From positions 8,339-72,338 of the forward strand of contig CBIHOC010000010.1 of NCBI GenBank assembly GCA_966211705.1: 64,000 nt of DNA, given 5' to 3'. Under the pieces are notes generated by a model that was given only the letters and a program-made list of their open reading frames with translations, made no database searches and was not told where the DNA came from. The position numbers and the translations under genes were made by a program. Below are positions 9,501 through 49,923 of this stretch, piece after piece. The stretch's first letter is position 1. The number at the start of each line of letters is the position of its first letter. This DNA comes from an uncultured Chryseobacterium sp. (GTDB lineage: Bacteria > Bacteroidota > Bacteroidia > Palsa-965).

Positions 9501-9588
9501 GCTTAAAAATTCCAAATATTACAAAACCCAAATCCCACCTCGTACATGATTTACCCTTTGGGAATTTGGAATTTCCGCTTTGTTTTTT

Positions 9589-17591: not shown

Positions 17592-17629
17592 TCCCTATCA
17601 ACTCAAACTAAACTTTTAAAAACCAAACT

Positions 17630-19015: not shown

Positions 19016-19078
19016 TCCGGGTCCAGCTCAAATTAATTAACCAACAACAAAACTCAATCATCTAAAACAACCCAAATT

Positions 19079-19510: not shown

Positions 19511-19528
19511 TTGTAAACAAAGAGAGAA

Positions 19529-20032: not shown

Positions 20033-20044
20033 AAAATCTGAAAC

Positions 20045-20203
20045 ATGCCTATTGAAATCAGGGAATTGGTTATTAAAGCTGTCGTCAATAACGAAGCGAA
20101 GGGAGAAGGCGGAGCGCCGTCTGCTCCCGGGCCTGCAGAGGATGTCGTGCAGGTGAGCATGGAGCAAATAAGTGAAATGAAACGTAAGGAAAAAGAGAGG
20201 TAG
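20045..20203 (+). CDS. Small 52-aa protein (MPIEIRELVIKAVVNNEAKGEGG...). Candidate Afp6/Pvc6-like small eCIS component, absent from the supplied ORF track.
   Basis: ATG at 20045 is 13 bp after the tube stop. In-frame stop TAG at 20201-20203 lies just before the LysM gene start. Location matches that of the small Afp6/Pvc6 proteins in canonical eCIS operons. Confidence 0.4.
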   Translation: MPIEIRELVIKAVVNNEAKGEGGAPSAPGPAEDVVQVSMEQISEMKRKEKER

Positions 20204-20206
20204 CTT

Positions 20207-22710: not shown

Positions 22711-22722
22711 CAACGACCTCAG

Positions 22723-22992
22723 ATGGCCGGCAAACCCGCAGCAAGACTTACAGATACAATGGCCGACGGAGGGATCATCACCGGTCCTGGTGACGCGACC
22801 GTTATGATCGGGGGAATGCCTGCGGCTGTGCTTGGCGATTCGCTAACATGGCCTGCAGGACAATCAACCGCAACATTCACGCTCGGGAGCACGACCGTCC
22901 TGATCGGCGGTAAACCCGCGATCCGCGTTGGCGACATGTCTTCCGGGGGAACATCAGCAGTAGTCGGCAAACCGACAGTTTTAATCGGATAA
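22723..22992 (+). CDS. PAAR-repeat spike tip protein (Afp10-like).
   Basis: 89 aa with triplicated PAAR-like motifs (GGIITGPGD, GMPAAVLGDS, GKPAIRVGDMSSGG). Confidence 0.8.
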   Translation: MAGKPAARLTDTMADGGIITGPGDATVMIGGMPAAVLGDSLTWPAGQSTATFTLGSTTVLIGGKPAIRVGDMSSGGTSAVVGKPTVLIG

Positions 22993-22997
22993 TTATT

Positions 22998-23429
22998 ATG
23001 GCAGAAAATAAGTTTATAAAAAGCAGCGCTGCGTTTCTCGGGAGAGGCTGGGGATTTCCTGTCACTTTTTCCCGCGGCATCAACGGTGTCAGCATGGTGG
23101 AAAGCGAAGAAGATATTCGGAGCAGCCTTGAGCTTCTTCTTGCAACAGCACTCGGTGAGCGCGTTATGCAACCGGGATATGGCTGCAATCTCGACAAGCT
23201 GATTTTTGAACCGCTCGACACGACATTCAGCACATTTATCACGGACCAGATACGAACAGCCGTTTTATATAATGAGCCCCGCGTGACACTGGAAACTGTG
23301 AATTATTTCCTGGATAACCTTGCAGGCCGCATTGATATCTCGATCGATTATACAATTGTGGCAACGAATAACAGGGCCAACCTGGTCTACCCATTCTATC
23401 TCAACGAAGGAACTGACATTTCACAATGA
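22998..23429 (+). CDS. gp25-like baseplate wedge protein (GPW_gp25 family, Afp9-like).
   Basis: GRGWGFPV...EEDIRSSLELLLATALGERVMQPGYGC signature of gp25/lysozyme-like baseplate proteins. Confidence 0.8.
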   Translation: MAENKFIKSSAAFLGRGWGFPVTFSRGINGVSMVESEEDIRSSLELLLATALGERVMQPGYGCNLDKLIFEPLDTTFSTFITDQIRTAVLYNEPRVTLETVNYFLDNLAGRIDISIDYTIVATNNRANLVYPFYLNEGTDISQ

Positions 23430-26400
23430 GCGAAGACTGCAACAATACCAGACACCCACTGCTTCGCGACGGTACAAGCCAGCAGCAACGGCTCCTCAAA
23501 GCCCTGCTCCCTTCTTATGTATCGGTGGACGAGCGAAGCATGGACGATCTCATCGCGTTTGCAAAGAAATACGCGGAGGAGATCCACTTTTACGACCAGG
23601 ACAATCTCACGAACGGCAACTGGGTTGAATTTTTTCAGCATGCCGTTGATGCGCAGAACCAGGAGACCGAACCGCACTACGCGCTTTTTATCGCGTTCCT
23701 CGACCTCTTCCGCGTCGCGCAGGACGACCTGAACACGATCACGCAGCGCCACCTCGATTTCTATTACCGCGAGGTGCTGCAGTTGAAAGAAAAGCCCGCT
23801 GTACCGGACCAGGTGTACGTGATCTTCAAGCTGGCCAAACAGGTCGCTTCCGGGCTGGCGGAAGAAGGCACGCTGCTCAACGCGGGAAAAGACGCGACCG
23901 GCGTGAACCTGAGCTACGACACCGATGAAAATATTGTCGTCAACAAAGGCGCGATCCAGGAACTGAAAGCGGTGTTCGCTGAAAAAACGCCGCAGCACAG
24001 GATCTATGGCTCGCCGGTTGCGAATTCTTCCGACGGCATCGGCGGCGAACTGACCGGCGACGAGCTGAAGTGGCGCACGTTCGGACGTAATCAACCCGTG
24101 GGCCCGGCAGACCGGCCGCAGGGGGAAGTTGGTTTTGCGTTCGCGTCGCCGATCCTTTTCATGGAAGAAGGAAAGCGCACGGTGACGATCAAGTTGACAT
24201 TTGCCCCGGCGCCATCCGGGCTTACGGCAGCGATGCTGGCAAATGCCTTCCGCATGCAGCTCAGCGGCGAAGAGGAATGGCTCACGCCGGAAGACCCGGC
24301 GAATGTTGTGCTTGTTTCGGGCAACCAGGTCACGATCGAGCGTACGCTGACGGAAGCGCAACCTCCTGTTGTAGCTTACGATGCGGAAAACCTGGGACAG
24401 TTGTTCCAGACTTCCTGGCCGGTAGTGAAAATTGTGCTGAACAATGATCCTGCTGTTTCATTCGCCTATAATAGCCTGAAAGGACTTGTGCTGTCCGGCG
24501 CGGAGATTAAGGTGAACGTCCGTGGCGTGAAGAACCTGACGTTATTCAACGACGACGCGAAACTGAAAGCGGATAAACCGTTCCTGCCGTTTACAAGCAG
24601 ACCGTTAATTGGTTCTACCCTTTACATTGGCAGTACAGAGGTTTTTTCAAAAAAAATAGATTCTCTCGGTATCGATCTTACCTGGCACGGGCTACCCTTT
24701 GCTCCGAATGGATTCTGGAACCATTATCACAATTACATTCCTGCCGTTGATAATCTTAACAGAACGAACGCCGGATTTAAAGCCAATATCAGTTTGCTCG
24801 ACGGAAAGAAATGGAACTATATTTCTACAGAGCGACTTTTTGCGGAACAAAACTCAGTTACGCTCGCCGTTGAAGATATTGAGATTCAAACCAGGGGACT
24901 TGAGCCTTATGTTGGCATTGTTGGGCCTAATTCACAAGCTCTGCCTCCCGCTCCTATCATTCTGATGGCTATTCCCACTTTCCGATTGAGTGAGTTGAAG
25001 CATATAAGCATTTCAGGGAATAGCACACTCTCATCGATCCCCCGCGATGCATCAATGGCTCCTGCAAAAGCGATCGATTCAACCACATTCAAAGGATTTG
25101 TCAAACTCGAGCTTACGGGTGCGGATTTCGGACATAAAGATTATCCGTTGTCCGTCACCCAGCAAGTCGTGCAGGCTGTTATCGATGAAACTGTACCCGC
25201 TATTGTAAACGAACCCTACACACCTACCATAAAAGAAATTTCGCTTAACTACACCTCCTCCGTCTCCATCTCTTTTCCGAACGACGAAACCGCATTCAAC
25301 GATCGCATCGAACAATTCTACCACGTTCAGCCGTTCGGCGTATGCGAAATGCACCCGTTCACGTTCGTCCCTTCCACGCCATCGCTCACGCTCCTGCCCC
25401 AGTTCAACGACGAAGGCAACCTCTACATCGGCGTCAGCGGGCTTAAGCCGGCACAGGTGCTCAACGTCCTCTTCAAAGTGGCGGACGGAAGCGCGAATCC
25501 CGACCTCAATACCCAAGAGGTGAAGTGGAGCTACATGGTGCGCAACCAGTGGGTGGAATTCCCGGCGCTGAAAGTATTGGCCGACGGTACGAAAGGTTTG
25601 CTGAATTCGGGCATCGTCATCTTCGATGTTCCGTCGGAAGCGACGAGCGACAATACCGTGCTTACTCCCGGCCTGCACTGGCTCCGCGCGAGCGTTGAAA
25701 ACGAGTCGGGCGCGGTATGCGACCTGATCAACCTTCATGCGCAGGCGGTAACGGCGACGTTCGCGGATAAAGGGAACGATCCTGAACATTTGCGCCAGGC
25801 CCTTCCCGCGGAAACGATCGCCAAGCTCCGCGAAAGCGACGCGCGGTTCTCCTCCGTAGCACAACCTTATGCTTCTTTCGGCGGTAAAGTAAAGGAGCAA
25901 AGCAACGACTTCTACCTGCGCGTGAGCGAACGCCTGCGTCACAAACATCGCGCGGTGACGATCTGGGATTACGAACACCTCGTGCTCGAAAAATTCCCTT
26001 CGGTTTACAAAGTGAAATGCATCAGCCACACGGAAGACAACCAACTGAATTATTCCGAGCTGGCCCCGGGGCACGTCACGCTGATCGCAGTCTCCAACCT
26101 GCGCAACAAAAACCTGGTCAACCCGCTCCAGCCGAAAACAAGCCTCGGCACGCTGCAGGACATCAAAGATTACATTTCAACGCTCACTTCCTGGTGGGTC
26201 GAGCTCGACGTGCGCAATCCATTGTTCGATGAGGTCCGCGTGACGTTCAATGTTCGCTTCCTCCCGGGATTCGACAACGGGTTCTACGGCAGCCAGCTCC
26301 AGGACGATATCAAAAAGTTCCTGTCGCCGTGGGCATACGAAGGCAGCAAAGACCTTTCGTTCGGCGGACGCGTTCACCGTTCCGTGATCCTGAATTTCGT

Positions 26401-26758
26401 GGAAGAGCTCGAATACGTCGACTTCGTCACCTGCTTCCGCATGGACATGATCACTTCCGGCAACGTAGTGCTGCCGAACATCGAAGAAGCAATACCTGTG
26501 AATGCCGCGTCGGTCCTTGTTTCAGCGACAACGCATTTCATCACGGTGCTCGAAACCGAAGATTGCGAATGCAACGAGAACACGGTGGTGGTCGACCAGC
26601 TCCGCCCTGCAGACGATGTCTCCTGCGACGTGCGCGGCGTACAGCCGCCGGAAGACGGCATCGGCTCGGAAACGATCGGCGACGACTTCATCGTAGGCGA
26701 TCCGCCGCAGTCGGGCATCAACTTCTTCCAGATCGAAAACGATTTTACCATTGATTAA
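23426..26758 (+). CDS. Baseplate J/gp6-like wedge protein (Afp11-like), 1110 aa.
   Basis: Position immediately after gp25 and large size. Assignment rests on position and size rather than a recognised motif. Confidence 0.65.
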   Translation: MSEDCNNTRHPLLRDGTSQQQRLLKALLPSYVSVDERSMDDLIAFAKKYAEEIHFYDQDNLTNGNWVEFFQHAVDAQNQETEPHYALFIAFLDLFRVAQDDLNTITQRHLDFYYREVLQLKEKPAVPDQVYVIFKLAKQVASGLAEEGTLLNAGKDATGVNLSYDTDENIVVNKGAIQELKAVFAEKTPQHRIYGSPVANSSDGIGGELTGDELKWRTFGRNQPVGPADRPQGEVGFAFASPILFMEEGKRTVTIKLTFAPAPSGLTAAMLANAFRMQLSGEEEWLTPEDPANVVLVSGNQVTIERTLTEAQPPVVAYDAENLGQLFQTSWPVVKIVLNNDPAVSFAYNSLKGLVLSGAEIKVNVRGVKNLTLFNDDAKLKADKPFLPFTSRPLIGSTLYIGSTEVFSKKIDSLGIDLTWHGLPFAPNGFWNHYHNYIPAVDNLNRTNAGFKANISLLDGKKWNYISTERLFAEQNSVTLAVEDIEIQTRGLEPYVGIVGPNSQALPPAPIILMAIPTFRLSELKHISISGNSTLSSIPRDASMAPAKAIDSTTFKGFVKLELTGADFGHKDYPLSVTQQVVQAVIDETVPAIVNEPYTPTIKEISLNYTSSVSISFPNDETAFNDRIEQFYHVQPFGVCEMHPFTFVPSTPSLTLLPQFNDEGNLYIGVSGLKPAQVLNVLFKVADGSANPDLNTQEVKWSYMVRNQWVEFPALKVLADGTKGLLNSGIVIFDVPSEATSDNTVLTPGLHWLRASVENESGAVCDLINLHAQAVTATFADKGNDPEHLRQALPAETIAKLRESDARFSSVAQPYASFGGKVKEQSNDFYLRVSERLRHKHRAVTIWDYEHLVLEKFPSVYKVKCISHTEDNQLNYSELAPGHVTLIAVSNLRNKNLVNPLQPKTSLGTLQDIKDYISTLTSWWVELDVRNPLFDEVRVTFNVRFLPGFDNGFYGSQLQDDIKKFLSPWAYEGSKDLSFGGRVHRSVILNFVEELEYVDFVTCFRMDMITSGNVVLPNIEEAIPVNAASVLVSATTHFITVLETEDCECNENTVVVDQLRPADDVSCDVRGVQPPEDGIGSETIGDDFIVGDPPQSGINFFQIENDFTID

Positions 26759-36624: not shown

Positions 36625-37445
36625 ATGTTCGCTGAACCGCAGCAGAAGAACGTATCGCAATTGCAATCCCCGCAGTCGCAATCGCCCCACATCCAGGCAA
36701 AGCTGGAAGTAGGCGCCAAAGACGACCCGCAGGAGAAAGAAGCAGATGCCGTCGCCGACTCGGTGATGCGCATGAGCGAAAGTTCCGGCGCTGCAGGCGA
36801 TGCAACCGGCGTAAAGGCGCAGCAGGAAAGCCCCATGGCCCGCCTGCTGCGCCGTCATCCCGACGCGCCACGCCCGCAAATCATCCACCGTTTGGCCGAC
36901 GCGCCGAAAGCCCAGCCTGTTCAACGCGCGCCCGCAGCAATACAAGGCCCCGCATCACCCGCCCTCCGCAAAAAAGAAGGCGAAGAAAACGCCATTGCGA
37001 AAGCGCCGGAGCATGGGGCAGTGCTGCGAATGCACGATGCAGACGAAGAAACGGTGCAGAAGAAAGAGGATGAGGAAAGTGTGATGAAGATGGACGATGA
37101 GGAAGGTCTGCAGAAGAAAGACGAAGAAGAGAGCGTGATGAAAATGGACGACGGCGGAAAAGGCGGCACCGCTCCGGCTGCTGTCGAGCAAGGCATTCAG
37201 TCCGGCAAAGGCCAGGGAAACCCGCTCCCTGAAAATGTACAGCAGGACATCGGCGGAAAGATGGGCGCGGATTTGAGTGATGTGCGTGTGCATACGGGAA
37301 GCAACGCGCATGAGATGTCCACCGCGATCAACGCGAAAGCGTTCACGCACGGGCAGGATGTGTATTTCAAGAACGGAAATTATGATACCTCGAGCAGTTC
37401 GGGGAAGAAGTTATTGACGCACGAGCTGACGCATACGCAGCAGCA
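36625..37445 (+). repeat. About 820-bp segment duplicated at about 97% identity at 42313-43133. Covers the shared N-terminal part of toxin genes 3 and 4.
   Basis: Direct comparison of the two nucleotide stretches shows only scattered substitutions from the ATG through the HExxH motif. Confidence 0.8.
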
Positions 37446-39261
37446 GAAGGCGCCCGGCGTGCAAAGGAAGGTGCAGCGGGGGTTCTGGGGGGATGTCTGG
37501 GAAGGTGTTAAATCGGTCGGAAACTTTGTATACGAAAATACCGGCCTCAAGACGATCGTCGAAACCGGCAAAGACATTTATCACTGGGCCGTTGATTCCC
37601 CCGAAGAGTTCCAGGCCTACATGCAGGGGAAGCTCAAAGATAAGATCGACGAGATCAGGGCCCAGAAAGAGCCGACCGTGATGTTTACCGCCAAATACTG
37701 GGCAATGAAAACCATTGCCATCGCGATGAATCCGCTGTCGATCTTCGCGATGCCTTCCACGCAGGCCATCTGGGATATTTTCCGGCAGGCCAAGCTGGGT
37801 TATTATGAGCACCTCTACAACCTGGGCAACGAATACGTCCTTAAGAAGAATGAAGACACCGGTAAAATGGAGCGCGTGAAAAACGAAAGCTTCAAAAAGG
37901 GTGGATATGCCGAGGTGTTCTCGAACCAGATGCGCAACATGCTCGATCCCCGCTTTATGCTGGGCGAAGTGGTCGGCATCTTTAAAGGCATCGGCGGCTG
38001 GTTCGTCGACCTGTGGGAGATGATCAAATGGTTCGGTGAAATGATCTGGGGCGGCATCAAAGGCACCTGGAACCTGCTTGTCAATTTTGAGCCGCCTGCA
38101 TTTATGACACAAGCTGCCGATCTCGCAACATCAGCCGGTGCCTGGTTCAAAGAGAACGGGAAAGCAATCATGGAAGAGCTCGGCATGCTGCTCCAGAATC
38201 CCACCAAGCTCAAGGAGGTCCTCGCTGACCTGAGAGCTGCGATCAAAACCGGCGCAGAGGGCCTCGCGTACGGAGCCGGCCAGGGCATGGCCGCGCTGCA
38301 GGTGAAGATCATGAGCATGAGCGCTTACGACCAGGGCGAGATGGTGGGCAAAGCCATCGGCTACCTCATCCCCGAGATCATCATCGCCGTGTTTAGCGGC
38401 ACCATCGTGAACTGGATCAAAGGCGGCGTGAAAGCGCTGCAGGTTTTCGGCTCGGCGCTCAAAGGCCTCAAAGCCATCAAGGCGCTCATGAACGGCGCGC
38501 GCGGCGTGATGAATGCTTTTGAGAAAATGGGCCGCCTGTTCAAGGCCCTTGGCAGCAAGATCGGCGGCGCACTCGGCAAGGCGTTCGACAATGTGATGGA
38601 TTTCTTCAAAGGGATTTTGAAATGGGGAGATGAGGCGCCGGCAGGTGCGGTGGATGATGTGCATGCGCCGCATGACCGGACGCCGGACGGGCCGGATGGG
38701 CCGAGGAATGATGGGCCGGATGGGCCGAAGAATAAGCCCGACGCCGACAACGCTATGCGGAATTTAGCGTACGGAGAGATGGTAGCGGAAGTGATACAGA
38801 GTAATGCAGCGGATGAACCGATCGCGAAGTTCAAGAGCGATATTTATAAAATAAAACGTCATTTCCCGATCGTTAAGGCATTCAAGTTTGTTCCGGATGG
38901 AGCTGGAGGATTATACGTTTATATGAAAGCTAGCCCATGGCGACTTGGAGGGCATAAGAAGGCACCCAAATATTCTCCCACTTCAAAACACCAAAAAGGA
39001 GGATGGGGAACTGAAATGGATCTAGACGACATAACAGCTCAACATGTGTTAGACAACTCAACGGTACTCGGAAAACAGAGCTATGGCTATCATAATGGAA
39101 AAATATATGAATTCCAATATGATAATGTCGGCGGATGGCATGGGTATCCTATACCGTCAATTCAACTTATTTCAAAATCAGGAGGCACGAAAATTTTGAG
39201 GCAGTGGTTAAAAGATGGTATCTTGTCAAAACCTGATTATAATAAGTTAATTGGTGGGTGA
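36625..39261 (+). CDS. DUF4157 N-terminal domain eCIS cargo toxin, 878 aa, with the conserved hydrophobic junction segment and an AT-rich variable C-terminal toxin domain.
   Basis: Contains HExxH (LLTHELTHTQQQ). N-terminal ~270 aa are near-identical to those of 42313-45096. Has the junction motif GYLIPEIIIAVFSGTIVNWIKGG. GC content drops sharply at about 38760. Confidence 0.75.
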   Translation: MFAEPQQKNVSQLQSPQSQSPHIQAKLEVGAKDDPQEKEADAVADSVMRMSESSGAAGDATGVKAQQESPMARLLRRHPDAPRPQIIHRLADAPKAQPVQRAPAAIQGPASPALRKKEGEENAIAKAPEHGAVLRMHDADEETVQKKEDEESVMKMDDEEGLQKKDEEESVMKMDDGGKGGTAPAAVEQGIQSGKGQGNPLPENVQQDIGGKMGADLSDVRVHTGSNAHEMSTAINAKAFTHGQDVYFKNGNYDTSSSSGKKLLTHELTHTQQQKAPGVQRKVQRGFWGDVWEGVKSVGNFVYENTGLKTIVETGKDIYHWAVDSPEEFQAYMQGKLKDKIDEIRAQKEPTVMFTAKYWAMKTIAIAMNPLSIFAMPSTQAIWDIFRQAKLGYYEHLYNLGNEYVLKKNEDTGKMERVKNESFKKGGYAEVFSNQMRNMLDPRFMLGEVVGIFKGIGGWFVDLWEMIKWFGEMIWGGIKGTWNLLVNFEPPAFMTQAADLATSAGAWFKENGKAIMEELGMLLQNPTKLKEVLADLRAAIKTGAEGLAYGAGQGMAALQVKIMSMSAYDQGEMVGKAIGYLIPEIIIAVFSGTIVNWIKGGVKALQVFGSALKGLKAIKALMNGARGVMNAFEKMGRLFKALGSKIGGALGKAFDNVMDFFKGILKWGDEAPAGAVDDVHAPHDRTPDGPDGPRNDGPDGPKNKPDADNAMRNLAYGEMVAEVIQSNAADEPIAKFKSDIYKIKRHFPIVKAFKFVPDGAGGLYVYMKASPWRLGGHKKAPKYSPTSKHQKGGWGTEMDLDDITAQHVLDNSTVLGKQSYGYHNGKIYEFQYDNVGGWHGYPIPSIQLISKSGGTKILRQWLKDGILSKPDYNKLIGG

Positions 39262-39823
39262 CATGGAAAAGTTATACTTCGAACTCACACCTTGTGAGCA
39301 TCCATATGCAAATGAACCCAGCTCAAAAGCTGATGCCTGGAGTATAATTGCAATGAAGCACCTTTCTCTAGGTAAAGCTCATGCTATTTTTGAATGGCAA
39401 TGGGATGCCTTTCCGGTACTTGAGTGGTTTTTTACAACTAAGGAAGCTATGCTAACAGAAAACTTTCCATTTAATACGATTGAAGGAAGGTGTATTGCGG
39501 AGTGCAGGACGAAGCTGTATGCCTATGATTCATTTTTAAACGAGAAGGAAGAAGACGATTACCTCCTCAGCTTAGAAAACTATTTTTCAAAACACAGCTT
39601 TACGCTTCCGGGCACTCCTTTGCCGTTATTTTATATCGGCTTATTCAAGGGCAAAGGCGACATCTCTTTTTACAATTCAACAAATGAGCTTGAATACTAT
39701 TCCTTTAATATGCCATCGTTTATTAACGACACGGAAGAAACTATTAATATTTTTCTTATGGAATGGAAAAAGGAGTACGCACGGGATCTGGGATTAGAGA
39801 GATTAGCAACCATACTTAAATAA
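39251..39823 (+). CDS. Hypothetical protein, 190 aa. Probable cognate immunity protein.
   Basis: Overlaps the toxin stop. AT-rich. Followed by the cassette repeat. Confidence 0.5.
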   Translation: MVGDMEKLYFELTPCEHPYANEPSSKADAWSIIAMKHLSLGKAHAIFEWQWDAFPVLEWFFTTKEAMLTENFPFNTIEGRCIAECRTKLYAYDSFLNEKEEDDYLLSLENYFSKHSFTLPGTPLPLFYIGLFKGKGDISFYNSTNELEYYSFNMPSFINDTEETINIFLMEWKKEYARDLGLERLATILK

Positions 39824-39870
39824 CAGGGCTGAATACAGCGAAGTAAGCGGGAAGGGATGCAGACTCGATT

Positions 39871-39995
39871 TTCACTCAGGCAGGCGCCGCGGGAAAACAG
39901 CATGCGATTAGAATCGCATGTTTTGGTATGAAGTTACGAACGGCTTTCCCGAAAATCAATTTTAATTTTCAGCACACGAGCAGAGTGAAAAGGTC
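39871..39995 (+). repeat. Cassette-boundary intergenic repeat, plus-orientation copy 1.
   Basis: ttcactcaggcaggcgccgcgggaaaacagcatgcgattagaatcgcatgttttggtatgaagttacgaacggctttcccgaaaatcaattttaattttcagcacacg, with an internal near-palindrome. Confidence 0.75.
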
Positions 39996-40001
39996 GGTTA
40001 C

Positions 40002-40976
40002 GTGATCGGCTACCTCATCCCCGAGATCATCATCGCCGTGTTTAGCGGCACCATCGTGAACTGGATCAAAGGCGGCGTGAAAGCGCTGCAGGTTTTCGGC
40101 TCGGCGCTCAAAGGCCTCAAAGCCATCAAGGCGCTCATGAACGGCGCGCGCGGCGTGATGAATGCTTTTGAGAAAATGGGCCGCCTGTTCAAGGCCCTTG
40201 GCAGCAAGATCGGCGGCGCACTCGGCAAGGCGTTCGACAATGTGATGGATTTCTTCAAAGGGATTTTGAAATGGGGCGATGAGGCGCCGGCGGTTGCGGT
40301 GGATGATGTGCATGCGCCGCATGACCGGACGCCGGATGGGCCGGATGGGAAGAAGAATAAGAATGATCGTGATGATAATGAGTCAAAAGCAGCGGAACTG
40401 CTAAAGGCAAAAGCAATCTTAGAGTTTAATAATAAAAGTGGAAATTTAGGATTATTAAAGACGCAGCTTTCAGTCTTAGATTTTCGTTCTGATTTAATTA
40501 AACGATTTGAATATCGGCCTGATGGAGACGATGTGAATGTTTACATGATTGCCAGTGAAAATTATGTAGGAAAATATTCTGTCAGAGCACGTAGGAGCAA
40601 TCCGAATTCTCCAAAAAGGACAATTAAACACAAAGGAATAGATCATACGGGAGGAAGGATAGTAAAAAAGACTAAAACAAAAGTAGATTATATAATGAAG
40701 GACAGCTCAGAAGCAATGAATTGGGCAAGAAAACAACTTGGACATAATACAAAAAAAATATATGAAAATGGGAAACTAGTAGGCTGGGAAAATGTAACAA
40801 ATGGCAATAAGGTAAAATGGGGGCATTATGATTGGTACCAAGGAGGTGGTTCGTCAAACTTTCCACATCTAAACTATGAGTTCAATGGGAGTAAACTGAA
40901 AGGGCATTTATTTCTTGAAGATAAAATTCATAATACAGGCCTAATGGATGATTTTATTGCGTATTTTGATCTTTAA
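40002..40976 (+). CDS. Orphan toxin C-terminal cassette, 324 aa. Begins with the conserved junction segment, then a distinct AT-rich C-terminal toxin domain.
   Basis: First about 115 aa (GYLIPEIIIAVFSG...WGDEAPA) are near-identical to residues about 574-690 of the 36625-39261 product, then diverge. Confidence 0.55.
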   Translation: MIGYLIPEIIIAVFSGTIVNWIKGGVKALQVFGSALKGLKAIKALMNGARGVMNAFEKMGRLFKALGSKIGGALGKAFDNVMDFFKGILKWGDEAPAVAVDDVHAPHDRTPDGPDGKKNKNDRDDNESKAAELLKAKAILEFNNKSGNLGLLKTQLSVLDFRSDLIKRFEYRPDGDDVNVYMIASENYVGKYSVRARRSNPNSPKRTIKHKGIDHTGGRIVKKTKTKVDYIMKDSSEAMNWARKQLGHNTKKIYENGKLVGWENVTNGNKVKWGHYDWYQGGGSSNFPHLNYEFNGSKLKGHLFLEDKIHNTGLMDDFIAYFDL

Positions 40977-40979
40977 ATA

Positions 40980-41396
40980 TTGTCCATGGATATCTCATCA
41001 ATAATTCCGAAGAGCGGAGACTCCATTCTTATGGCAACTTCGTGGAATATGGGTATTCTCCATATTGAATTAACACTGGGAGAAACAGATGAGCGTATAC
41101 ATTTATCTATAGCAACAGATCGGGTCTTTTTTTCGCCAAAAGTGTATGATAGCGGATCTGATAAGACATGCTTTATTGAATTTAAGCTCCTTGAAGAAAT
41201 AATCCCGCCACAAAACACACTATATCTTCCACCTTCGGATTTTCATTTACTCATGGAGCAAATCAATAATCAGTTTCATATTGCATATGGGCTTAAAAAG
41301 AGCGAATATGGTTATTTTTTTTCCCTCAGAGGTTATCAAAGACTGGTGGCTTGTGTTATTAAAAACCACAATGATATAAAGGTGTCTGGGATTTAA
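40980..41396 (+). CDS. Hypothetical protein, 138 aa. Probable immunity protein for the orphan cassette.
   Basis: Starts 4 bp after the cassette stop. AT-rich. Confidence 0.5.
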   Translation: MSMDISSIIPKSGDSILMATSWNMGILHIELTLGETDERIHLSIATDRVFFSPKVYDSGSDKTCFIEFKLLEEIIPPQNTLYLPPSDFHLLMEQINNQFHIAYGLKKSEYGYFFSLRGYQRLVACVIKNHNDIKVSGI

Positions 41397-41405
41397 AAAT
41401 AGTGC

Positions 41406-41520
41406 TTTTCACTCAGGAATGCGCCGCGGGAAAACAGATTATAATCGCATGTTTTGGTATGAAGTTACGAACGATTTTCCCGAAAATCAATTTTAATTTT
41501 TCGCACACGACTAGGGCGAA
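41406..41520 (+). repeat. Cassette-boundary intergenic repeat, plus-orientation copy 2.
   Basis: ttttcactcaggaatgcgccgcgggaaaacagattataatcgcatgttttggtatgaagttacgaacgattttcccgaaaatcaattttaatttttcgcacacg. Confidence 0.75.
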
Positions 41521-41691
41521 ATGCTCGGCAAAGCCATCGGCTACCTCATCCCGGAGATCATCATCGCCGTGTTCACCGGCACCATCGTGAATCGCCTTTT
41601 ACCCACAAAAGGCTACCGGAAACCAAATGAAAAATGTGTTTGGACGCGGAGAAATGCTCGAAACTATAAATGTCTTAAAAGCATACGCTAA
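41521..41691 (+). pseudogene. Truncated orphan cassette remnant: a 56-aa ORF retaining only the junction motif (MLGKAIGYLIPEIIIAVFTGTIVN) before diverging and stopping.
   Basis: Homology to the junction segment for about 25 codons, then unrelated sequence and a stop. The downstream small ORF at 41627-41791 is in a different frame. Confidence 0.45.
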
Positions 41692-42045: not shown

Positions 42046-42153
42046 TAATGGGCGTTGTCAGGAACAGGGGGCGTTGTTAAGAATTACTTCCTGACGACTC
42101 CATTTTTTTGTCGGAAAATACGATTGCAAATCAACCCTATAATCCTCTGTCCC

Positions 42154-42272
42154 TTTTCACTCAGGAATGTGCCGCGGGAAAACAGATTATAATCGCATGT
42201 TTTGGTATGAAGTTACGAACGATTTTCCCTGGAAGTCAATTCTGATTTCCACCTGCGAGCAGGGCGAAATAG
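42154..42272 (+). repeat. Cassette-boundary intergenic repeat, plus-orientation copy 3, here preceding a full-length toxin gene.
   Basis: ttttcactcaggaatgtgccgcgggaaaacagattataatcgcatgttttggtatgaagttacgaacgattttccctggaagtcaattctgatttccacctgcgagcagggcgaaatag. Confidence 0.75.
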
Positions 42273-42312: not shown

Positions 42313-45096
42313 ATGTTCGCTGAACCGCAGCAGAAGAACGTATCACAATTGCAATCGCCGCAGTCGCAATCGCCCCACATCCAGCCGAAGCTGGAAGTGG
42401 GCGCCAAAGACGACCCGCAGGAGAAAGAAGCAGATGCCGTCGCCGACTCGGTGATGCGCATGAGCGAAAGTTCCGGCGCTGCAGGCGATGCAACCGGCGT
42501 AAAGGCGCAGCAGGAAAGCCCCATGGCCCGCCTGCTGCGCCGCCATCCCGACGCGCCCCGCCCGCAAATCATCCACCGTTTGGCCGACGCGCCGAAAGCC
42601 CTGCCTGTTCAACGCGCGCCCGCAGCGATACAAGGCCCCGCATCGCCTGCCCTCCGCAAAAAAGAAGACGAAGAAAACGCCATTGCGAAAGCGCCGGAGC
42701 ATGGCGCGATCCTGCGAATGCACGATGCAGACGAAGAAACGGTGCAGAAGAAAGAGGACGAGGAAAGCGTGATGAAGATGGACGACGAGGAAGGTCTGCA
42801 GAAGAAAGAGGATGAAGAGAGCGTGATGAAAATGGACGACGGCGGAAAAGGCGGCACCGCTCCGGCTGCTGTCGAGCAAGGCATTCAGTCCGGCAAAGGC
42901 CAGGGAAACCCGCTCCCTGAAAATGTACAGCAGGACATCGGCGGAAAGATGGGCGCGGATTTGAGTGATGTGCGTGTGCATACGGGAAGCAACGCGCATG
43001 AGATGTCCACCGCGATCAACGCGAAAGCGTTCACGCACGGGCAGGATGTGTATTTCAAGAACGGAAATTATGATACCTCGAGCAGTTCGGGGAAGAAGTT
43101 ATTGACGCACGAGCTGACGCATACGCAGCAGCAGTCCGCCCGCGGCGGAGGCGGGATGAACAGGAAGATCCAGCGGTTCGAATCTAACGAGCACCGGAAA
43201 ATGGGCGATGAAGGCTCGGGAGGAAAACAGATCGTTTTATCACCTTATTTCACGATTTCATATGGCGATATGACGGCTCTTGCCGGAGATTGGTTCGGCT
43301 CTGTAGAAGAAATCACCGAGTTGGCTAAAAAGCGGGGTAAAGTTACATTCGGCAAAACAGTTGAGGATATACTCTCTTATGGAAATAAGTATCAGTATTT
43401 CAACCAACCCGGTACAGTTGATGAGATCAAATATGCTGTTGTTGTCGGCATACACGGGAAAACGAATTATAAAAATATTTTTGGTGCCGAGGTTCCTAAG
43501 AAAGTGGATGCCCGGGCTAAACTTTTATTGCAACGGAACTGGGACCATTTTACAAATCCCAGGGCCGGGGATGCTCAGCTGGCCCATAAGGATAAGCTTA
43601 ACCTGAGAGAAAATGATTTTCCTCTGAATAATGCGACGGCATATAGAGATAATCATGAAAGAGCAATACAGGAAGCGGTCAAGGCCGGGAAAAATAACAG
43701 CGGCTTGAATACAGCAATGTTATATGAATCGTTCGCCAGCCATTTTTTAACAGATGCTTATGCCTCGGGGCACATACGGGCAGAACGATTCGATATTGCA
43801 AAATATTGGAATGAGAAATACCCCATGTTTTATTTTAATATGCTGCGCTGGATAGCTGAAAAAATGGCGCAACATATTCAAAAAAACAAATACTACGGAC
43901 TCACTAAGCATTTTGTTTTCGGGCAGGTTGTTGATACGCTCAACGAGATGCTGGGTAGTGATCCTGAAACTTTATTGGGAGATATTATCGGGGGGGCAAT
44001 TCATGATCTCGACAATAAACGTGGTGTTGCTTCAAAAGTAGATAAAGCACAAAAAGCGGTTCGGTTGTTTGGAGATGGCCAGGTGCTGGACGACCAGGAC
44101 AGGCTGCTGGCCCAGGGCATGGAAACGTTTAATCTGGTTACTGCGGCAGTAAAAGTCAGTCTTAAAGATATTACTGCAGCTTACGAAAAAGGGAAAAACG
44201 GGCAGGATGTCAACAGCGTCTTAAAATCGCTTCAAACAAAAGATCTGTACAAAGCCGAACAACTATGGCCAGCAGCGGTAAGCGACACCGACCCGTTGCA
44301 GAAGGAATCTCCAGCCGTCAAATGGAAAGCTGACACTTACGAAAAACTGATTGAGCTGGCGGATGTCAAGGACGCTATCAAATTGCTCCTGGACGAAAAG
44401 ACAAAGACGATCAAGGACTCCGTCACTTTCGACGAGGATTATAAAAAAACGGCTTTCGAAGAAAGTGTAGTAACCAATCTCCAGGGAGATGCAGGTATTG
44501 AATCATTGAAACAAATCATCCATTATTACCCTGGGATTATATTAGACCTCAGCGGATTCTTCGGTTCAGATGACGACGATGAAGCATATGACTATTATAA
44601 AGAAACGAAAGACAGAAGTGCATTAGGCTCGCTGACAAGCAAACAACGCGAAGGCCTTATTAAAAAAGCATTGAGCGGTCCAACTGTCGGTGATGACGAC
44701 GTCATGATTGCCGATATCCTGAGCAATACACCAGAGGCTGATGTATATGATATAATTACCGGGCTCGATGAGGATGGCTATACCGGATGGGCCTGGATAT
44801 ATGACGATTTGTCGGGGCAAGAATTAGAAGATGTAATCCGTAAAGCCGGACCTGCCTATTGGAAACAAGCCACGTTCGATGAAAAATGGAATGAATGCTA
44901 CAGGATGATCGGGATAACCAATGTTTATTTTCCGGGCATCGCTTCTCTTTCTGACTTCGAAAACAAGGTTGTTATGGTTATTTTACGATCGGATAAGACC
45001 AAGATTGAGAACCAGCTTCTGAATGTCGATTTCCAGTTTGAGAAAGTGCTTAAGAGTGCATATAAATACGAAATAAGAGAGCTTGTTACTCCCTGA
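42313..45096 (+). CDS. DUF4157 N-terminal domain toxin, 927 aa, with a large distinct C-terminal domain. Paralog of 36625-39261.
   Basis: N-terminal ~270 aa are near-identical to those of 36625-39261, including HExxH. Sequence downstream of about 43133 is unrelated and AT-richer. Confidence 0.75.
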   Translation: MFAEPQQKNVSQLQSPQSQSPHIQPKLEVGAKDDPQEKEADAVADSVMRMSESSGAAGDATGVKAQQESPMARLLRRHPDAPRPQIIHRLADAPKALPVQRAPAAIQGPASPALRKKEDEENAIAKAPEHGAILRMHDADEETVQKKEDEESVMKMDDEEGLQKKEDEESVMKMDDGGKGGTAPAAVEQGIQSGKGQGNPLPENVQQDIGGKMGADLSDVRVHTGSNAHEMSTAINAKAFTHGQDVYFKNGNYDTSSSSGKKLLTHELTHTQQQSARGGGGMNRKIQRFESNEHRKMGDEGSGGKQIVLSPYFTISYGDMTALAGDWFGSVEEITELAKKRGKVTFGKTVEDILSYGNKYQYFNQPGTVDEIKYAVVVGIHGKTNYKNIFGAEVPKKVDARAKLLLQRNWDHFTNPRAGDAQLAHKDKLNLRENDFPLNNATAYRDNHERAIQEAVKAGKNNSGLNTAMLYESFASHFLTDAYASGHIRAERFDIAKYWNEKYPMFYFNMLRWIAEKMAQHIQKNKYYGLTKHFVFGQVVDTLNEMLGSDPETLLGDIIGGAIHDLDNKRGVASKVDKAQKAVRLFGDGQVLDDQDRLLAQGMETFNLVTAAVKVSLKDITAAYEKGKNGQDVNSVLKSLQTKDLYKAEQLWPAAVSDTDPLQKESPAVKWKADTYEKLIELADVKDAIKLLLDEKTKTIKDSVTFDEDYKKTAFEESVVTNLQGDAGIESLKQIIHYYPGIILDLSGFFGSDDDDEAYDYYKETKDRSALGSLTSKQREGLIKKALSGPTVGDDDVMIADILSNTPEADVYDIITGLDEDGYTGWAWIYDDLSGQELEDVIRKAGPAYWKQATFDEKWNECYRMIGITNVYFPGIASLSDFENKVVMVILRSDKTKIENQLLNVDFQFEKVLKSAYKYEIRELVTP

Positions 45097-45150: not shown

Positions 45151-45621
45151 ATGAAATGGCTGATTTCTTTGTTTGTTGTTTTAATAGGCGTTGGCCTGTT
45201 ATATGCACCGGTTGCTTCCGTTAAACGGGACACTATTGATATTTCTTTCAAGGGGATAACTCAAAAAACCTATCCCGGTACAGTAACTGTATCCGGTAAA
45301 AAAATACTTAACGATTGGCCCTCTGCAGCACTTGTGATTTTCTCCCTGTTTTTGCCCTTGCTCCTCCAGGTCCAGGGATTATTCTTTTCCGAACAATCAT
45401 GGAATATCCTCCGTTTTCTTTTACTTTTTGAGCTGCTGATTGCCCTGGCCGGTATTTTTTCCACCTGGCTCTCCATCGAAACGATACTGATGGTCTCATC
45501 CGGCACATGGCGCTGGGGACGTTACGCGCTGTTGTTCATCGAAACGTTTTATGCTGTCGTTTTACTTTTACTGGTGACCCCTGCAGGTAGAAATCTGCGT
45601 ACACTGTTGCTTTATCGTTAG
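45151..45621 (+). CDS. Hypothetical polytopic membrane protein, 156 aa. Probable immunity protein.
   Basis: Four or five hydrophobic helices (LISLFVVLIGVGLLY...). Immediately downstream of the toxin. Confidence 0.5.
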   Translation: MKWLISLFVVLIGVGLLYAPVASVKRDTIDISFKGITQKTYPGTVTVSGKKILNDWPSAALVIFSLFLPLLLQVQGLFFSEQSWNILRFLLLFELLIALAGIFSTWLSIETILMVSSGTWRWGRYALLFIETFYAVVLLLLVTPAGRNLRTLLLYR

Positions 45622-45622
45622 T

Positions 45623-45706
45623 CTTTTCACTCAGGAATGCGCCGCGGGAAAACAGCATGCGATTATAATCGCATGTTTTGATATGAAGTTACGAACGGCT
45701 TTCCCC
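45623..45706 (+). repeat. Cassette-boundary repeat, plus-orientation copy 4. Its 3' part is deleted so the repeat is fused directly to junction-motif coding sequence.
   Basis: cttttcactcaggaatgcgccgcgggaaaacagcatgcgattataatcgcatgttttgatatgaagttacgaacggctttccc runs straight into ccgagatcatcatcgccgtg. Confidence 0.7.
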
Positions 45707-46004: not shown

Positions 46005-47540
46005 ATGTTCCAGCACAAAACAATGAACAGGCCCGGCGATAGTCCGGTTTCCCTGAATTATGCCCGGCTGACGCAAGACGATAACCGGCTTACGCCCGGA
46101 ACCACGACCAACGCCGCTGCCGATAAAATGGACGAGGAGAAAAGCATGAATGCTTCGTACAACATGGCCGACGACGAGAAAACAATGAACGCGGCCGGAA
46201 GCATGGATGAAGAGAAAACAATGAACGCGGCCGGAAGCATGGATGAAGAGAAAACAATGAATGCCGCAACCGGAAGCATGGAGGAAGAAAAATCCATGAA
46301 TGCCGCAACCGGAAGCATGGAGGAAGAAAAATCCATGAACGCCGCCGGGGAGAAAGACGAAGAAAAAAGCATGAACGCTTCGTATTCCGCAAACATGGCC
46401 GACGACGAAAAGACCATGAACGCGGCGGGAAGCTCGATGGACGAAGAGAAATCGATGAACGCCGGCGGAGATAAAATGGATGAAGAGAAAAGCATGAATG
46501 CGGCGGGAAAAATGGATGAAGAGAAAAGCATGAATGCCGCCAGCGATAAAGTGGAAGACCTGAACCAGTCAAAGGGTAAGCCGGCCGGCAAAGCGTTTGG
46601 CAGTTCCGGATCGGCGATCAAAAGTGCGGGCAGGGCAATCGGGCTTATCGGGGCAAATTATCTTGCCGCTTCCAGGATAAAAGCATCCATCGCGCCTGTC
46701 GACGGGAAGTTCGGCAAGGCAGGCGTGAAGCGCATTCCCCCGCGCGTGGATACGGACGTGGCCGTTAAAGTTACGGGCATACCGGAAGGATCAAAGGGAT
46801 TGTTCTTTAAGGTCAACCAGGTGGATGGAAACAATGACGGTACGGTAACGGTCAACGGGCAGACTTCCGTTTATATCAAAAACGATCAAACGCTGAAGCT
46901 GCGCGGGAACAAACAGACGGAGCCGGGACACGCCTCGCACCTTTGCCTGGCAGGTGCTTATAACGGGATAAACGTCGCCTACAGCAATCATTTTTCCGTA
47001 GCCGCTTTCCCGGAAAGCATCGAATCGACGACCGTTTCCCCGCACTATGCATCCGGGCCGAACTATGTACACATGGGTGGAATTTACAACCTGCCGTCGA
47101 AATCGGATTCAGGCGTAGACACCGACCTCGGCAAGACCTGGATTTCTGAAAGTGTGAGCGTTGCTTCGAAATCGGGGGTGTTTGCGACCTCAACGGAATC
47201 GAATACGGGCTTTATGAGACCTTCTCCTCACTTCGATCATAACATCTCCAAATTCGGCGACAGCGCGCAGGGTTTGAAAGCGGGCTTAAACACCGGCAAC
47301 CTGATCGCTTCCGAAAAAACCAATCACCAGTGTTTTTATTTCGCCTGCGACCGTACCGGTATCACAACGAACCTTGCTACTGCGCCGCTCATCCCTAAGT
47401 CGGGATTCAAACTGAAACGCACTTTTTCCAAAGTAGGTAACCGCACGTATTTCCATATTTCCCGTTCCTCACTGGCCGTCGGAAATGCAACAGGCGCTTC
47501 GGTGGCGACCGCATCACCCGGAAGCATTGAACTTATTTAA
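46005..47540 (+). CDS. Hypothetical protein, 511 aa. N-terminal about 150 aa consist of about 12 tandem acidic repeats (M/A)DEEK(S/T)MNAAG, followed by a globular C-terminal domain.
   Basis: Obvious about 33-39-bp tandem nucleotide repeats at about 46130-46545. The C-terminal domain is not recognised. Confidence 0.55.
   Translation: MFQHKTMNRPGDSPVSLNYARLTQDDNRLTPGTTTNAAADKMDEEKSMNASYNMADDEKTMNAAGSMDEEKTMNAAGSMDEEKTMNAATGSMEEEKSMNAATGSMEEEKSMNAAGEKDEEKSMNASYSANMADDEKTMNAAGSSMDEEKSMNAGGDKMDEEKSMNAAGKMDEEKSMNAASDKVEDLNQSKGKPAGKAFGSSGSAIKSAGRAIGLIGANYLAASRIKASIAPVDGKFGKAGVKRIPPRVDTDVAVKVTGIPEGSKGLFFKVNQVDGNNDGTVTVNGQTSVYIKNDQTLKLRGNKQTEPGHASHLCLAGAYNGINVAYSNHFSVAAFPESIESTTVSPHYASGPNYVHMGGIYNLPSKSDSGVDTDLGKTWISESVSVASKSGVFATSTESNTGFMRPSPHFDHNISKFGDSAQGLKAGLNTGNLIASEKTNHQCFYFACDRTGITTNLATAPLIPKSGFKLKRTFSKVGNRTYFHISRSSLAVGNATGASVATASPGSIELI
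46130..46545 (+). repeat. About 36-bp tandem repeat array inside the CDS, encoding the MDEEKSMNAAG units.
   Basis: Repeating atggatgaagagaaaa(c/g)(a/c)atgaa(c/t)gc(g/c)gc(c/g)gg... units. Confidence 0.7.
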
Positions 47541-48573: not shown

Positions 48574-49923
48574 TTGCCTACCCCTGCTTCACCCTCCACG
48601 ACCTTCAGCAACGCCGCCGCCATGCAGGCCAACGCACGTTTCATCAACGAAGAAATGAATTGGTTCAGCCGCGCCATCAGCTCCAATGATTTGTCCAGCC
48701 TCATTCCCCCCATGCTCCCGGAATCCGGCGGTTCGACCTACGCGGCTTTTATCGCGAAGCACAACCTCTCCATCGAAGAACGTTTTATTCTTATCCTCGC
48801 GCTGGCGCCGCACCTTCGGCCTGAATTCCTTGACGGTTTTTTTGCACGCAACGATTCCGGCCGGCATCCGTCGGAGATCGGCGGGCGCATAGGGAAACAT
48901 CACTCCGGCTTTTTGCCCACGGGCGAAACAGCGGTTTTCCTGCTCGGCGGGAGGACCCTCGAAGGACGGCTGCCGCTGATCGGCCTGTTTGACCAGGACA
49001 GCACGCTTGTGCGCGAAGGGGTTATTTTCCTTTCCGACGTGGAAAACGGCGAACCGAAACTCAGCGGAGTCCTGTGTGTTCCCGACGAAATGATCGCCCA
49101 TCTCCTGCTCTGCAAAAAGATGGCGCCGAAATTTTCAAAAGATTTTCCCGCGCAGCTGTTGACGACGACAAAAACCTGGGACGATCTCGTGCTGAACGAA
49201 CAGACCGTGCGCCAGCTCCGGGAGATCGAAGTGTGGCTCGAATTCAACCATGTGCTGATGAACGGCTGGGGACTTTCCAGGCTCATCCGCCCGGGGTTCA
49301 AAGCCCTGTTTCACGGCGCGCCCGGCACCGGCAAATCGCTCACTGCCTCGCTGCTCGGACAGCGCACCGGCCGCGAAGTGTACCGCATCGATCTTTCCAT
49401 GATCGTTTCGAAATACATCGGTGAAACGGAGAAGAACCTGGCCCGTGTGTTCGACCGGGCGGAAAATAAAGAATGGATACTTTTTTTCGATGAAGCCGAT
49501 GCCCTCTTCGGGAAACGTACCGCCGTCAGCAGCTCCCACGACCGTTACGCCAACCAGGAAGTTTCCTACCTCCTCCAGCGCATCGAGGAGTTCAATGGCC
49601 TCGTGATCCTGGCCAGCAACCTGAAAAGCAACATGGACGACGCTTTCCTGCGACGCTTTAACTCGATCATCTTTTATCCGTCACCGCGCCAGGAAGAACG
49701 CTACCTCATCTGGAAAAAAGGATTTTCCTCCTCCACGCAGCTGGAGGAACAGATCCGACTCGAGCATATCGCCCAGAAATACGACCTTTCCGGGGGACAC
49801 ATCGTCAACGTGATCCACTATTGCTCGCTCATGGCAGCAAGCCGCGGCGACAGCACCATACGCCTGGCAGACCTGACCGAAGGATTGCGAAAAGAATATG
49901 CAAAGCTCGGCAGAACGATTTGA
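48574..49923 (+). CDS. Second eCIS-type AAA+ ATPase (Afp15-like paralog), 449 aa.
   Basis: Walker A GAPGTGKS and Walker B ILFFDEADALFGKR. Same architecture as 9589-11151, including the N-terminal LSIEERFILILALAPHL segment. Confidence 0.8.
   Translation: MPTPASPSTTFSNAAAMQANARFINEEMNWFSRAISSNDLSSLIPPMLPESGGSTYAAFIAKHNLSIEERFILILALAPHLRPEFLDGFFARNDSGRHPSEIGGRIGKHHSGFLPTGETAVFLLGGRTLEGRLPLIGLFDQDSTLVREGVIFLSDVENGEPKLSGVLCVPDEMIAHLLLCKKMAPKFSKDFPAQLLTTTKTWDDLVLNEQTVRQLREIEVWLEFNHVLMNGWGLSRLIRPGFKALFHGAPGTGKSLTASLLGQRTGREVYRIDLSMIVSKYIGETEKNLARVFDRAENKEWILFFDEADALFGKRTAVSSSHDRYANQEVSYLLQRIEEFNGLVILASNLKSNMDDAFLRRFNSIIFYPSPRQEERYLIWKKGFSSSTQLEEQIRLEHIAQKYDLSGGHIVNVIHYCSLMAASRGDSTIRLADLTEGLRKEYAKLGRTI

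Follow-up and report, generated by a model that had tools for sequence, protein, structure and literature searches.

A helical module with a conserved signature helix ahead of exchangeable toxin tips in an extracellular contractile injection system locus

What is the hydrophobic segment that stands ahead of two different toxin tips in one contractile injection locus and reappears in truncated copies nearby, and why is it kept? The locus lies in a 64,000-nt stretch of contig CBIHOC010000010.1 from an uncultured Chryseobacterium sp. (the window, meaning the whole stretch of DNA analysed), which holds the structural gene cluster of an extracellular contractile injection system (eCIS) and, adjoining it, the DUF4157 toxin genes of that system. 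An original prediction, made from the DNA alone, had placed the segment at nt 38341–38700, inside the toxin here called tox36625. We conclude that it is very probably the signature helix of an unannotated, all-helical pre-toxin module of ~230 residues in eCIS cargo toxins. The fuller account, in which this module also provides an arm for cassette exchange and contributes to translocation, is one that we favour on balance.

eCIS particles are under development as programmable protein injectors, and the stretch between DUF4157 and toxin has so far been treated as a ‘linker’. The passage of payloads that act in the bacterial cytoplasm over the inner membrane is unexplained. The module is a concrete element to mutate and transplant, and it is attached to nucleic-acid-targeting enzymes wherever the payload can be recognised. 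It also helps to annotate truncated ‘hypothetical’ open reading frames (ORFs) near eCIS clusters and to mine new toxin/immunity pairs.

The helical module and its signature helix

Four toxins of the window carry eCIS_core/DUF4157 (PF13699). The module is present in tox36625 and tox6735 and absent from the other two, tox2303 and tox42313. The toxins and the parts of the module-bearing pair are as follows.

2303–5845, − strand: tox2303
42313–45096, + strand: tox42313
36625–39261, + strand: tox36625, with a disordered N-terminal domain, DUF4157 (aa 200–276), a middle region, the helical module (aa ~440–672), a Pro/Gly/Asp linker and a C-terminal payload
37942–38640, + strand: helical pre-toxin module of tox36625, aa 440–672, from the profile search, a local hmmsearch envelope (aa 440–690) and collinearity with the orthologue P0004 to aa 672
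38335–38421, + strand: junction helix core of tox36625, G571–K599, GEMVGKAIGYLIPEIIIAVFSGTIVNWIK, with the signature G-x3-G-x3-G-Y-x3-E-x6-S-x-[G/T]-x5-K
38422–38640, + strand: cationic amphipathic tail of tox36625, aa 600–672, ending at KWGDEAP
38641–39258, + strand: PDG-rich linker and variable C-terminal payload of tox36625
39251–39823, + strand: putative immunity gene for the tox36625 payload, proposed from its position directly behind the toxin
6735–9515, − strand: tox6735, with DUF4157, SH3b/LysM-like domains (aa ~405–585), the module, a Lys-rich tail and EndoU (aa 801–924)
7206–7763, − strand: helical pre-toxin module of tox6735, aa ~585–770
7326–7412, − strand: junction helix core of tox6735, G702–K730, GYNWGWLIGYIIAEVIMAVVSWGSITAIK
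6395–6727: immunity candidate of tox6735

By sequence, both module-bearing proteins are members of the DUF4157/eCIS_core cargo toxin class (Pfam eCIS_core, E = 3.6e-28 for tox36625 and 2.5e-27 for tox6735), and the HExxHxxQ motif is visible in their translations as HELTHTQQ and HEVVHTQQ, respectively. Besides DUF4157, BLASTP between the two returned a high-scoring segment pair that joins aa 457–654 of tox36625 to aa 587–770 of tox6735 (27% identity, E = 5e-6). This pair includes both peptides quoted in the original prediction, IGYLIPEIIIAVFSGTIVNWIKGGVKALQVFGSALKGLKA (aa 578–617 of tox36625) and LIGYIIAEVIMAVVSWGSITAIKWGGKAV; the predicted segment as a whole corresponds to aa 573–692. The junction helix core is also the highest Kyte–Doolittle window of tox36625.

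An alignment of the two modules (two sequences, ~230-aa helical region) served as the query profile against 1.84 billion cluster representatives. It matched 298 protein clusters at E ≤ 1e-3, 71 at E ≤ 1e-10 and 8 at E ≤ 1e-30. This exhaustive hidden Markov model (HMM) search was needed because word-indexed protein searches gave little: the tox36625 module retrieved two orphans only, and nothing came back for the tox6735 module or for a family alignment of 10 sequences. In the best 150 matches the module sits in the middle of the protein: the median length is 373 residues ahead of it and 206 behind it.

The junction segment is the most conserved part of the module across the family. Among 141–144 aligned sequences, G143 and G147 are invariant (100%), followed by S/T159 (97%), K167 (96%), E152 (93%), Y148 (92%) and G161 (88%), and profile position 139 is G or W. 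The resulting family signature is G-x3-G-x3-G-Y-x3-E-x6-[S/T]-x-G-x5-K, of which a strict regular expression matches 123 of 154 sequences. Listed by motif, the sequences fall into four subfamilies that differ nearly everywhere outside it. Because the motif is invariant or nearly so in 141–144 homologues of other organisms, the match between the two window toxins is far beyond chance.

The company that the module keeps is that of eCIS cargo. Pfam eCIS_core was found in all 58 proteins scanned from the group flagged by a local DUF4157 HMM, and DUF4157 or HExxHxxQ in 64 of the 123 motif-bearing sequences (121 matches and the two window toxins). Several motif-bearing sequences that lack DUF4157 carry N-terminal motifs typical of DUF4157 cargo (LQRTIGN, EREAD..A..VMRM), and further ones are fragments or orphans. 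SH3_3 occurs in 36 of 137 relatives scanned with Pfam, LysM and PG_binding_1 in others, and in the family consensus an SH3-like and LysM-like stretch comes immediately ahead of the module. Locus scans of genomes and metagenomes gave few loci, and the genome matches among them come from Methylothermaceae, Acidobacteriota and Bacteroidetes metagenome-assembled genomes (MAGs); in one (L004) the toxin lies directly behind an eCIS-type AAA+/winged-helix ATPase, and another (L003) has four eCIS_core genes.

Existing annotation does not cover the module. No Pfam or NCBIfam model falls over it. PT-TG, PT-VENN, PT-HINT and DUF637 gave no match at E ≤ 0.1 in the window toxins and none over the module in the 137 relatives scanned, one of which bears PT-HINT as an additional, separate domain behind the module. 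Look-ups of cluster members gave no name other than ‘hypothetical protein’, and a literature search, incomplete in its coverage, found no description of the module or of eCIS orphan arrays.

The module thus separates the exchangeable toxin at the C-terminus from a part for loading and targeting, which is made up of a disordered N-terminal domain, in most cases DUF4157, and frequently wall-binding domains of SH3b/LysM-like type. It consists of W-rich amphipathic helices, one marginally hydrophobic, glycine-faced helix of 31 residues and a Lys/Arg-rich amphipathic tail. An AlphaFold2 (AF2) prediction of tox6735 aa 405–810 with the family alignment has a beta-rich part with a predicted local distance difference test (pLDDT) score above 90, which in the PDB is matched best by SH3b domains of NlpC/P60 hydrolases and TagH, and then the all-helical module. 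When the tox6735 module is modelled alone, its best-defined elements are the first long helix (pLDDT 83–90) and the 31-residue junction helix (pLDDT 85–94).

What follows the helix is diverse: in 113 proteins, these downstream regions separate into 46 BLAST components that are unrelated to one another. All payloads that Pfam recognises are nucleases or deaminases, that is, nucleic-acid-targeting: EndoU, colicin E5, colicin D, colicin/pyocin DNase, AHH, WHH, Tox-SHH, Tox-HNH-EHHH, Tox-REase-2, CdiA_C and GIY-YIG, together with XOO_2897/YwqJ deaminases and Ntox24/50. No cell-wall, lipid, pore-forming or other periplasm-acting payload is among them. The tox36625 payload has neither a Pfam nor a PDB match, and none of the putative immunity ORFs behind the tips (39251–39823, 40980–41396 and 6395–6727) matches a Pfam family.

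Several claims of the original prediction change in the light of these data. It had described a homologue of the segment in the left-hand toxin, at the constant/variable boundary of otherwise unrelated toxin families. The homology is real, and the unit shared is ~200 residues long, not ~30. Both toxins have the DUF4157 N-terminus and this entire unit in common, and their tips alone are unrelated. The boundary lies not at the segment but ~75 residues (up to ~100) downstream of the helix, at KWG[D/E]EAP (aa 672). Similarity confined to this genome, which would have spoken against the original prediction, is not what we see, given the 298 clusters and the relatives in three groups of MAGs.

Apart from the family proper, the phage tape-measure proteins P0014, P0082, P0101, P0111, P0116 and P0138 (four of them with PhageMin_Tail) match profile positions 7–62 repeatedly, by way of W..IK-type repeats. 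These multi-stretch matches lack the signature helix and align at positions 7–62 only, and we rejected them as family members; they hint that the front part of the module may derive from, or converge on, tape-measure repeats.

Junction copies and cassette exchange

Repeats within the window were mapped by self-BLASTN and then aligned codon by codon. The copies of the junction and the sequences around them are listed here.

39976–40358, + strand: junction copy opening the 40002 orphan cassette, 383 nt, 95.3% identical to 38327–38709
40002–40976, + strand: orphan cassette ORF P0001, 324 aa, with junction helix, tail, linker and a payload different from that of tox36625
40980–41396: putative immunity gene of the 40002 orphan, 138 aa
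41507–41591, + strand: junction remnant, 85 nt, 91.8% identical to 38327–38411, with an in-frame TAG just upstream; homology stops after ~28 codons
45704–45895, + strand: junction fragment, 192 nt, 98.4% identical to 38370–38561, beginning at codon P583 and without payload
39869–39990, 41400–41522, 42153–42270 and 45619–45705: four copies of a non-coding inter-cassette spacer of 85–120 nt; counted only as far as the junction copies, the first (+ strand), second and fourth span 39869–39975, 41400–41506 and 45619–45703

The module's 3′ half is, in our view, likely to act in this locus as a homology arm for toxin/immunity cassette exchange and for the retention of orphans. One line of support is the pattern of identity between tox36625 and the 40002 orphan. 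Nine of their first ten shared codons differ; 90 consecutive codons (nt 38356–38625, 270 nt) are then identical at all bases, and past this tract the two diverge anew in the Pro/Gly/Asp linker. The duplicated N-termini of tox36625 and tox42313 are 96.9% identical. A tract of 270 nt with no substitution, synonymous or other, set against this value points to recent gene conversion or exchange and not to purifying selection alone.

The spacers supply a second repeated element. Each copy sits behind an immunity-like ORF and ahead of a junction copy or tox42313 (4 matches against 0 expected). Two of the four contain a perfect palindrome, CATGCGAT-TATA-ATCGCATG, with A/T runs on its flanks, which looks like a bidirectional terminator. 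No Rfam family matches the spacer as an RNA element, and only one of the four copies folds notably better than shuffled sequence. With a spacer and a junction around each cassette, two homology arms are available and would permit double-crossover replacement. Downstream toxin-tip/immunity modules with 5′ homology to the main gene are present, and they are presumably promoter-less.

Comparable arrangements occur in the three outside contigs in which orphan arrays were examined. P0004 stems from a metagenomic locus that is syntenic with the window: the structural genes ahead of it encode 579, 1517 and 1089 aa, against 577, 1516 and 1077 aa in the window. As far as KWG[D/E]EAP at aa 672 it is collinear with tox36625 (54% identity), and beyond that point the two are unrelated; its locus also encodes another eCIS_core toxin and a fragment of EndoU. 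The 295-aa orphan P0002 comes from a contig with two eCIS_core toxins; its junction is 91% identical and its tip different. In L001, an EndoU tip remnant and an immunity remnant, homologous to tox6735 and to ORF 6395–6727, are followed by the orphan P0019, beginning ...FMSAPAFEQGEMMGKMVGYLIPE. Close relatives therefore combine a constant part with unrelated C-termini, as in tox36625 and P0004, or share the junction and differ in their tips, as in P0001 and P0002.

The original prediction had the segment recurring at the start of the 40002 cassette, in a remnant at 41521 and in a fragment at 45706, and self-BLASTN places a copy at each. Its proposals of a recombination hotspot and of an analogy to pretoxin domains likewise find support: orphans keep the segment, the 270-nt tract is free of substitutions, and the same module precedes unrelated C-termini in other contigs.

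A separate similarity lies past the PDG-rich linker. There the tip of tox36625 (38641–38985) and P0002 (aa 85–231) are 40% identical over ~115 residues and share the motif F..D(L/I)..IK.RFP.VK.F..P before they diverge; in the 40002 orphan, similarity to this stretch is only weak (E = 0.015). The tox36625 subfamily may therefore have either a nested second boundary or an adaptor subdomain.

A possible role in translocation, and the alternatives

On a helical wheel the glycines of the junction helix fall on one face (320, 0, 40 and 0 degrees), with Y, E, S/T and K opposite (140–240 degrees). In 91 of 123 proteins the helix holds the 19-mer of highest hydrophobicity. Its Kyte–Doolittle value is 1.94 and 1.91 in the two window toxins and averages 1.79 in the family, which is the maximum of the module (usual cut-off 1.6). 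The 80 residues past the helix are net positive in 98% of 119 members, with a median charge of +8. Because wall-binding domains, a marginal glycine-faced helix with acidic and basic residues, a cationic tail and cytoplasm-acting nucleases come together in one protein, the module could be a conditional membrane-insertion or translocation element. Cargo would be delivered into the bacterial envelope, where the module would bind or insert into the cytoplasmic membrane. Insertion would make use of helix–helix packing by way of the glycine face, and the membrane potential would draw the cationic tail inward, so that the module helps the basic tail and the nuclease to cross. We tentatively favour this role, also raised in the original prediction: the marginal helix, the cationic tail and the nuclease/deaminase payloads make it plausible and are circumstantial.

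Several observations weigh against this account. The Hessa apparent free energy of insertion (dGapp) of the helix has a median of +3.3 kcal/mol (+3.6 for tox36625 and +2.5 for tox6735) and is below 0 in 2% of members; the helix is not a clear transmembrane segment and could be the buried core helix of a soluble bundle. The AF2 models are of medium confidence overall (mean pLDDT 69–72), and no structure in the PDB or BFVD resembles the module, so its fold gives no functional lead. About 80% of payloads are without a Pfam assignment, and the statement that all are nucleases stands on ~25 proteins. For the exchange arm, orphan-like short proteins among the matches begin 0–80 residues ahead of the helix; since these 5′ ends vary, helix and tail are the minimum that is kept and not a fixed crossover point.

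The most serious alternative, which we nevertheless consider unlikely, is that the helix lies buried as the core of a soluble scaffold of helices and has a packaging role (keeping the cargo extended or helical in the tube lumen, tape-measure-like, or docking it to tube or spike) and none at the target membrane. The marginal hydrophobicity of the helix would fit this, as would the W..IK periodicity of the N-terminal third, where positions 7–62 match repeats in PhageMin_Tail tape-measure proteins, and the two long helices predicted with the highest AF2 confidence, which could pack against each other. Tme and Sle1, which are related to tape-measure proteins, bind parts of the baseplate (PMC11126660, PMC13277306). 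However, loading in AlgoCIS requires the disordered N-terminus alone, and not DUF4157 (bioRxiv 10.64898/2026.05.27.728243). The module is not required for cargo of the present machine in general, as tox2303 and tox42313 lack it, and hhalign found no relation to ORF 11529–13355, the guessed tape-measure protein of the locus. Packaging also leaves unexplained the exclusive link to nucleic-acid enzymes and the universally cationic tail. Processing at the motif, either by autoproteolysis through the conserved S/T–K or E or by a zincin-like DUF4157 cut that releases the payload, is a good deal less probable than packaging. Conserved Y, E, S/T and K do share one helix face, and a role as releasing peptidase has been predicted for DUF4157 (Zhang et al. 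2012, PMC3482391). Yet the motif lies within a confidently predicted 31-residue helix, a poor protease substrate, ~75–100 aa upstream of the variable boundary, so that a cut would leave helix and tail on the toxin. It is conserved equally in members without DUF4157 and bears no likeness to known self-cleaving Pfam families, and one member has its own PT-HINT domain behind the module. The suggestion of autoproteolysis in the original prediction is therefore not borne out.

Two other explanations concern the copies and not the protein. It is very improbable that the orphans are independent genes, with the N-terminal helix of the 324-aa product as a signal-anchor and a toxin that acts outside the eCIS. 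The ORF is intact, starts with GTG at the helix, has an intact partner gene downstream and is annotated as a protein by NCBI and ENA. Such start codons are gene-caller choices, however, and homology to the full-length toxin extends ~9 codons farther upstream than the GTG; the distance from start to helix also varies among orphan-like proteins elsewhere. The ORF lacks the N-terminal domain required for eCIS loading and lies just downstream of a spacer with the terminator-like palindrome, and two of the three junction copies are obvious debris. Least probable of all, to the point that we give it almost no weight, is a pure recombination scar or hotspot, conserved by DNA-level gene conversion in this genome with no protein role. 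The 270 nt of perfect toxin–orphan identity between diverged codons and the three truncated copies in the window are what such a scar would leave. Gene conversion inside one genome cannot, however, yield seven helix positions conserved at 88–100% across phyla at 20–40% overall identity, and the co-occurrence of DUF4157 speaks against a compositional artefact among the 298 matches.

Returning to the pre-toxin module with its possible translocation role, a bolder version is conceivable, though we think it rather unlikely: a self-contained, portable translocation device that would act on cargo left by an eCIS in a Gram-negative periplasm. SH3b/LysM would hold the cargo at the cell wall, the glycine-faced helix would oligomerise in the inner membrane, and the potential would pull the cationic tail, and with it the nuclease in unfolded form, into the cytoplasm. 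If true, this would supply the missing step by which nucleases delivered by an eCIS kill bacteria, and it would offer a part that can be transferred to engineered injection systems.

The surrounding locus and related systems

The remaining genes of the eCIS cluster in the window are the following.

15843–26755: two sheath proteins, two gp19-type tube proteins, a GPD/base_V spike and Baseplate_J, assigned by Pfam
9589–11151 and 48574–49923: AAA-ATPase-like ORFs, recognised by reading the translations and not by Pfam

By BLASTP against tox36625, homology of tox42313 is confined to the first 288 residues, and tox2303 has DUF4157 alone in common with it. tox2303 contains a very hydrophobic multi-helix block at aa ~860–970 (Kyte–Doolittle 3.87, dGapp −8.7), before its C-terminal domain. 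hhalign rejected this block as a homologue of the module; it lies in the same relative position and looks like an analogous, independently built solution. The left arm was built by duplication too: a 1-kb repeat (5296–6297 and 8951–9920, 91.5% identical) spans the toxin N-termini and what lies upstream of them, with the 3′ end of the AAA ATPase gene copied as part of it, and a 70-nt trailer (565–634 and 6321–6392, 80% identical) lies behind two downstream small genes. Among the small genes downstream of tox2303, ORF 1223–1762 (− strand, 179 aa) resembles by eye an RNA 2′-phosphotransferase (Tpt1/KptA) and might have an immunity or repair function against an RNA-targeting toxin.

The structural cluster is headed by ORF 11529–13355 (+ strand, 608 aa), which has 150-nt tandem repeats at 12193–12957 (79–82% identical) and no Pfam match. 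It may be the tape-measure or length-determining protein of the eCIS; as a candidate homologue of the module it was rejected (hhalign negative). ORF 46005–47540 (+ strand, 511 aa), also without a Pfam match, devotes its N-terminal third to ~12 tandem MDEEKSMNAAG-like repeats, which are reminiscent of the acidic KKEDEESVMKMDD repeats that tox36625 and tox42313 have in their disordered N-termini, and it may be a cargo protein without DUF4157.

Helical elements that aid inner-membrane crossing are known from prePAAR/Tse6-type effectors of type VI secretion systems (T6SS) and from the translocation domains of colicins and diphtheria toxin. The module may be compared with these in that a marginally hydrophobic helical element, with acidic residues embedded in hydrophobic helices, is borne by a cytoplasm-acting toxin that, once in the periplasm, has yet to pass the inner membrane. 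Position, fold and sequence are unrelated, and the likeness would be one of functional analogy alone.

A closer parallel in architecture is Tme of Streptomyces davawensis, a protein reported to be membrane-associated, with an N-terminal DUF4157, transmembrane helices, a cationic cell-penetrating-like segment and a C-terminal endonuclease (PMC11126660). The order of DUF4157, hydrophobic helix, basic segment and nuclease is the same, as judged from the described architecture and not from sequence. Tme exceeds 2,200 aa, is ~70% disordered, has several clear transmembrane helices and belongs to an intracellular actinobacterial contractile injection system (PMC11126660), whereas the proteins described here have 500–1,100 aa and one marginal hydrophobic helix. 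Sle1-type effectors are tape-measure-related and have variable C-terminal functional domains (PMC13277306). The G-x3-G-Y-x3-E motif of the present family was not found in the tape-measure matches, where positions 7–62 alone align.

DUF4157 marks eCIS cargo toxins with variable C-termini, in which the intervening stretch has been called ‘a very long linker’ (Geller 2021, PMC8213781; PMC3482391). The present proteins belong to this class of PVC-metallopeptidase (DUF4157/eCIS_core) toxins, with eCIS_core N-terminal and the toxin C-terminal. In contrast to earlier descriptions, part of the ‘linker’ is now a defined conserved domain with a motif, and the recombination boundary lies behind the module, not behind DUF4157.

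In the classical polymorphic toxins, the pre-toxin motifs are PT-VENN of CdiA and the end of the Rhs core at PxxxxDPxGL. The module has no sequence relationship to these contact-dependent inhibition (CDI) and Rhs systems and no Pfam PT-VENN or PT-TG match, and its proteins are delivered by an eCIS, not by a type V secretion system or a T6SS. The conserved unit is all-helical, ~230 aa long, with a hydrophobic helix and a cationic tail, rather than a short motif placed exactly where the cut falls, and ~75 aa separate the signature helix from the start of the variable part. The organisation is nevertheless that of CDI and Rhs polymorphic toxins (PMC3482391), with a conserved stretch just upstream of a C-terminal toxin that can be exchanged, orphan toxin/immunity modules farther downstream that retain a piece of this stretch as a homology arm, and diverse nuclease and deaminase payloads, each with an adjacent (here putative) immunity gene. 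Thus, eCIS toxin loci can follow the orphan-cassette logic of CDI and Rhs systems.

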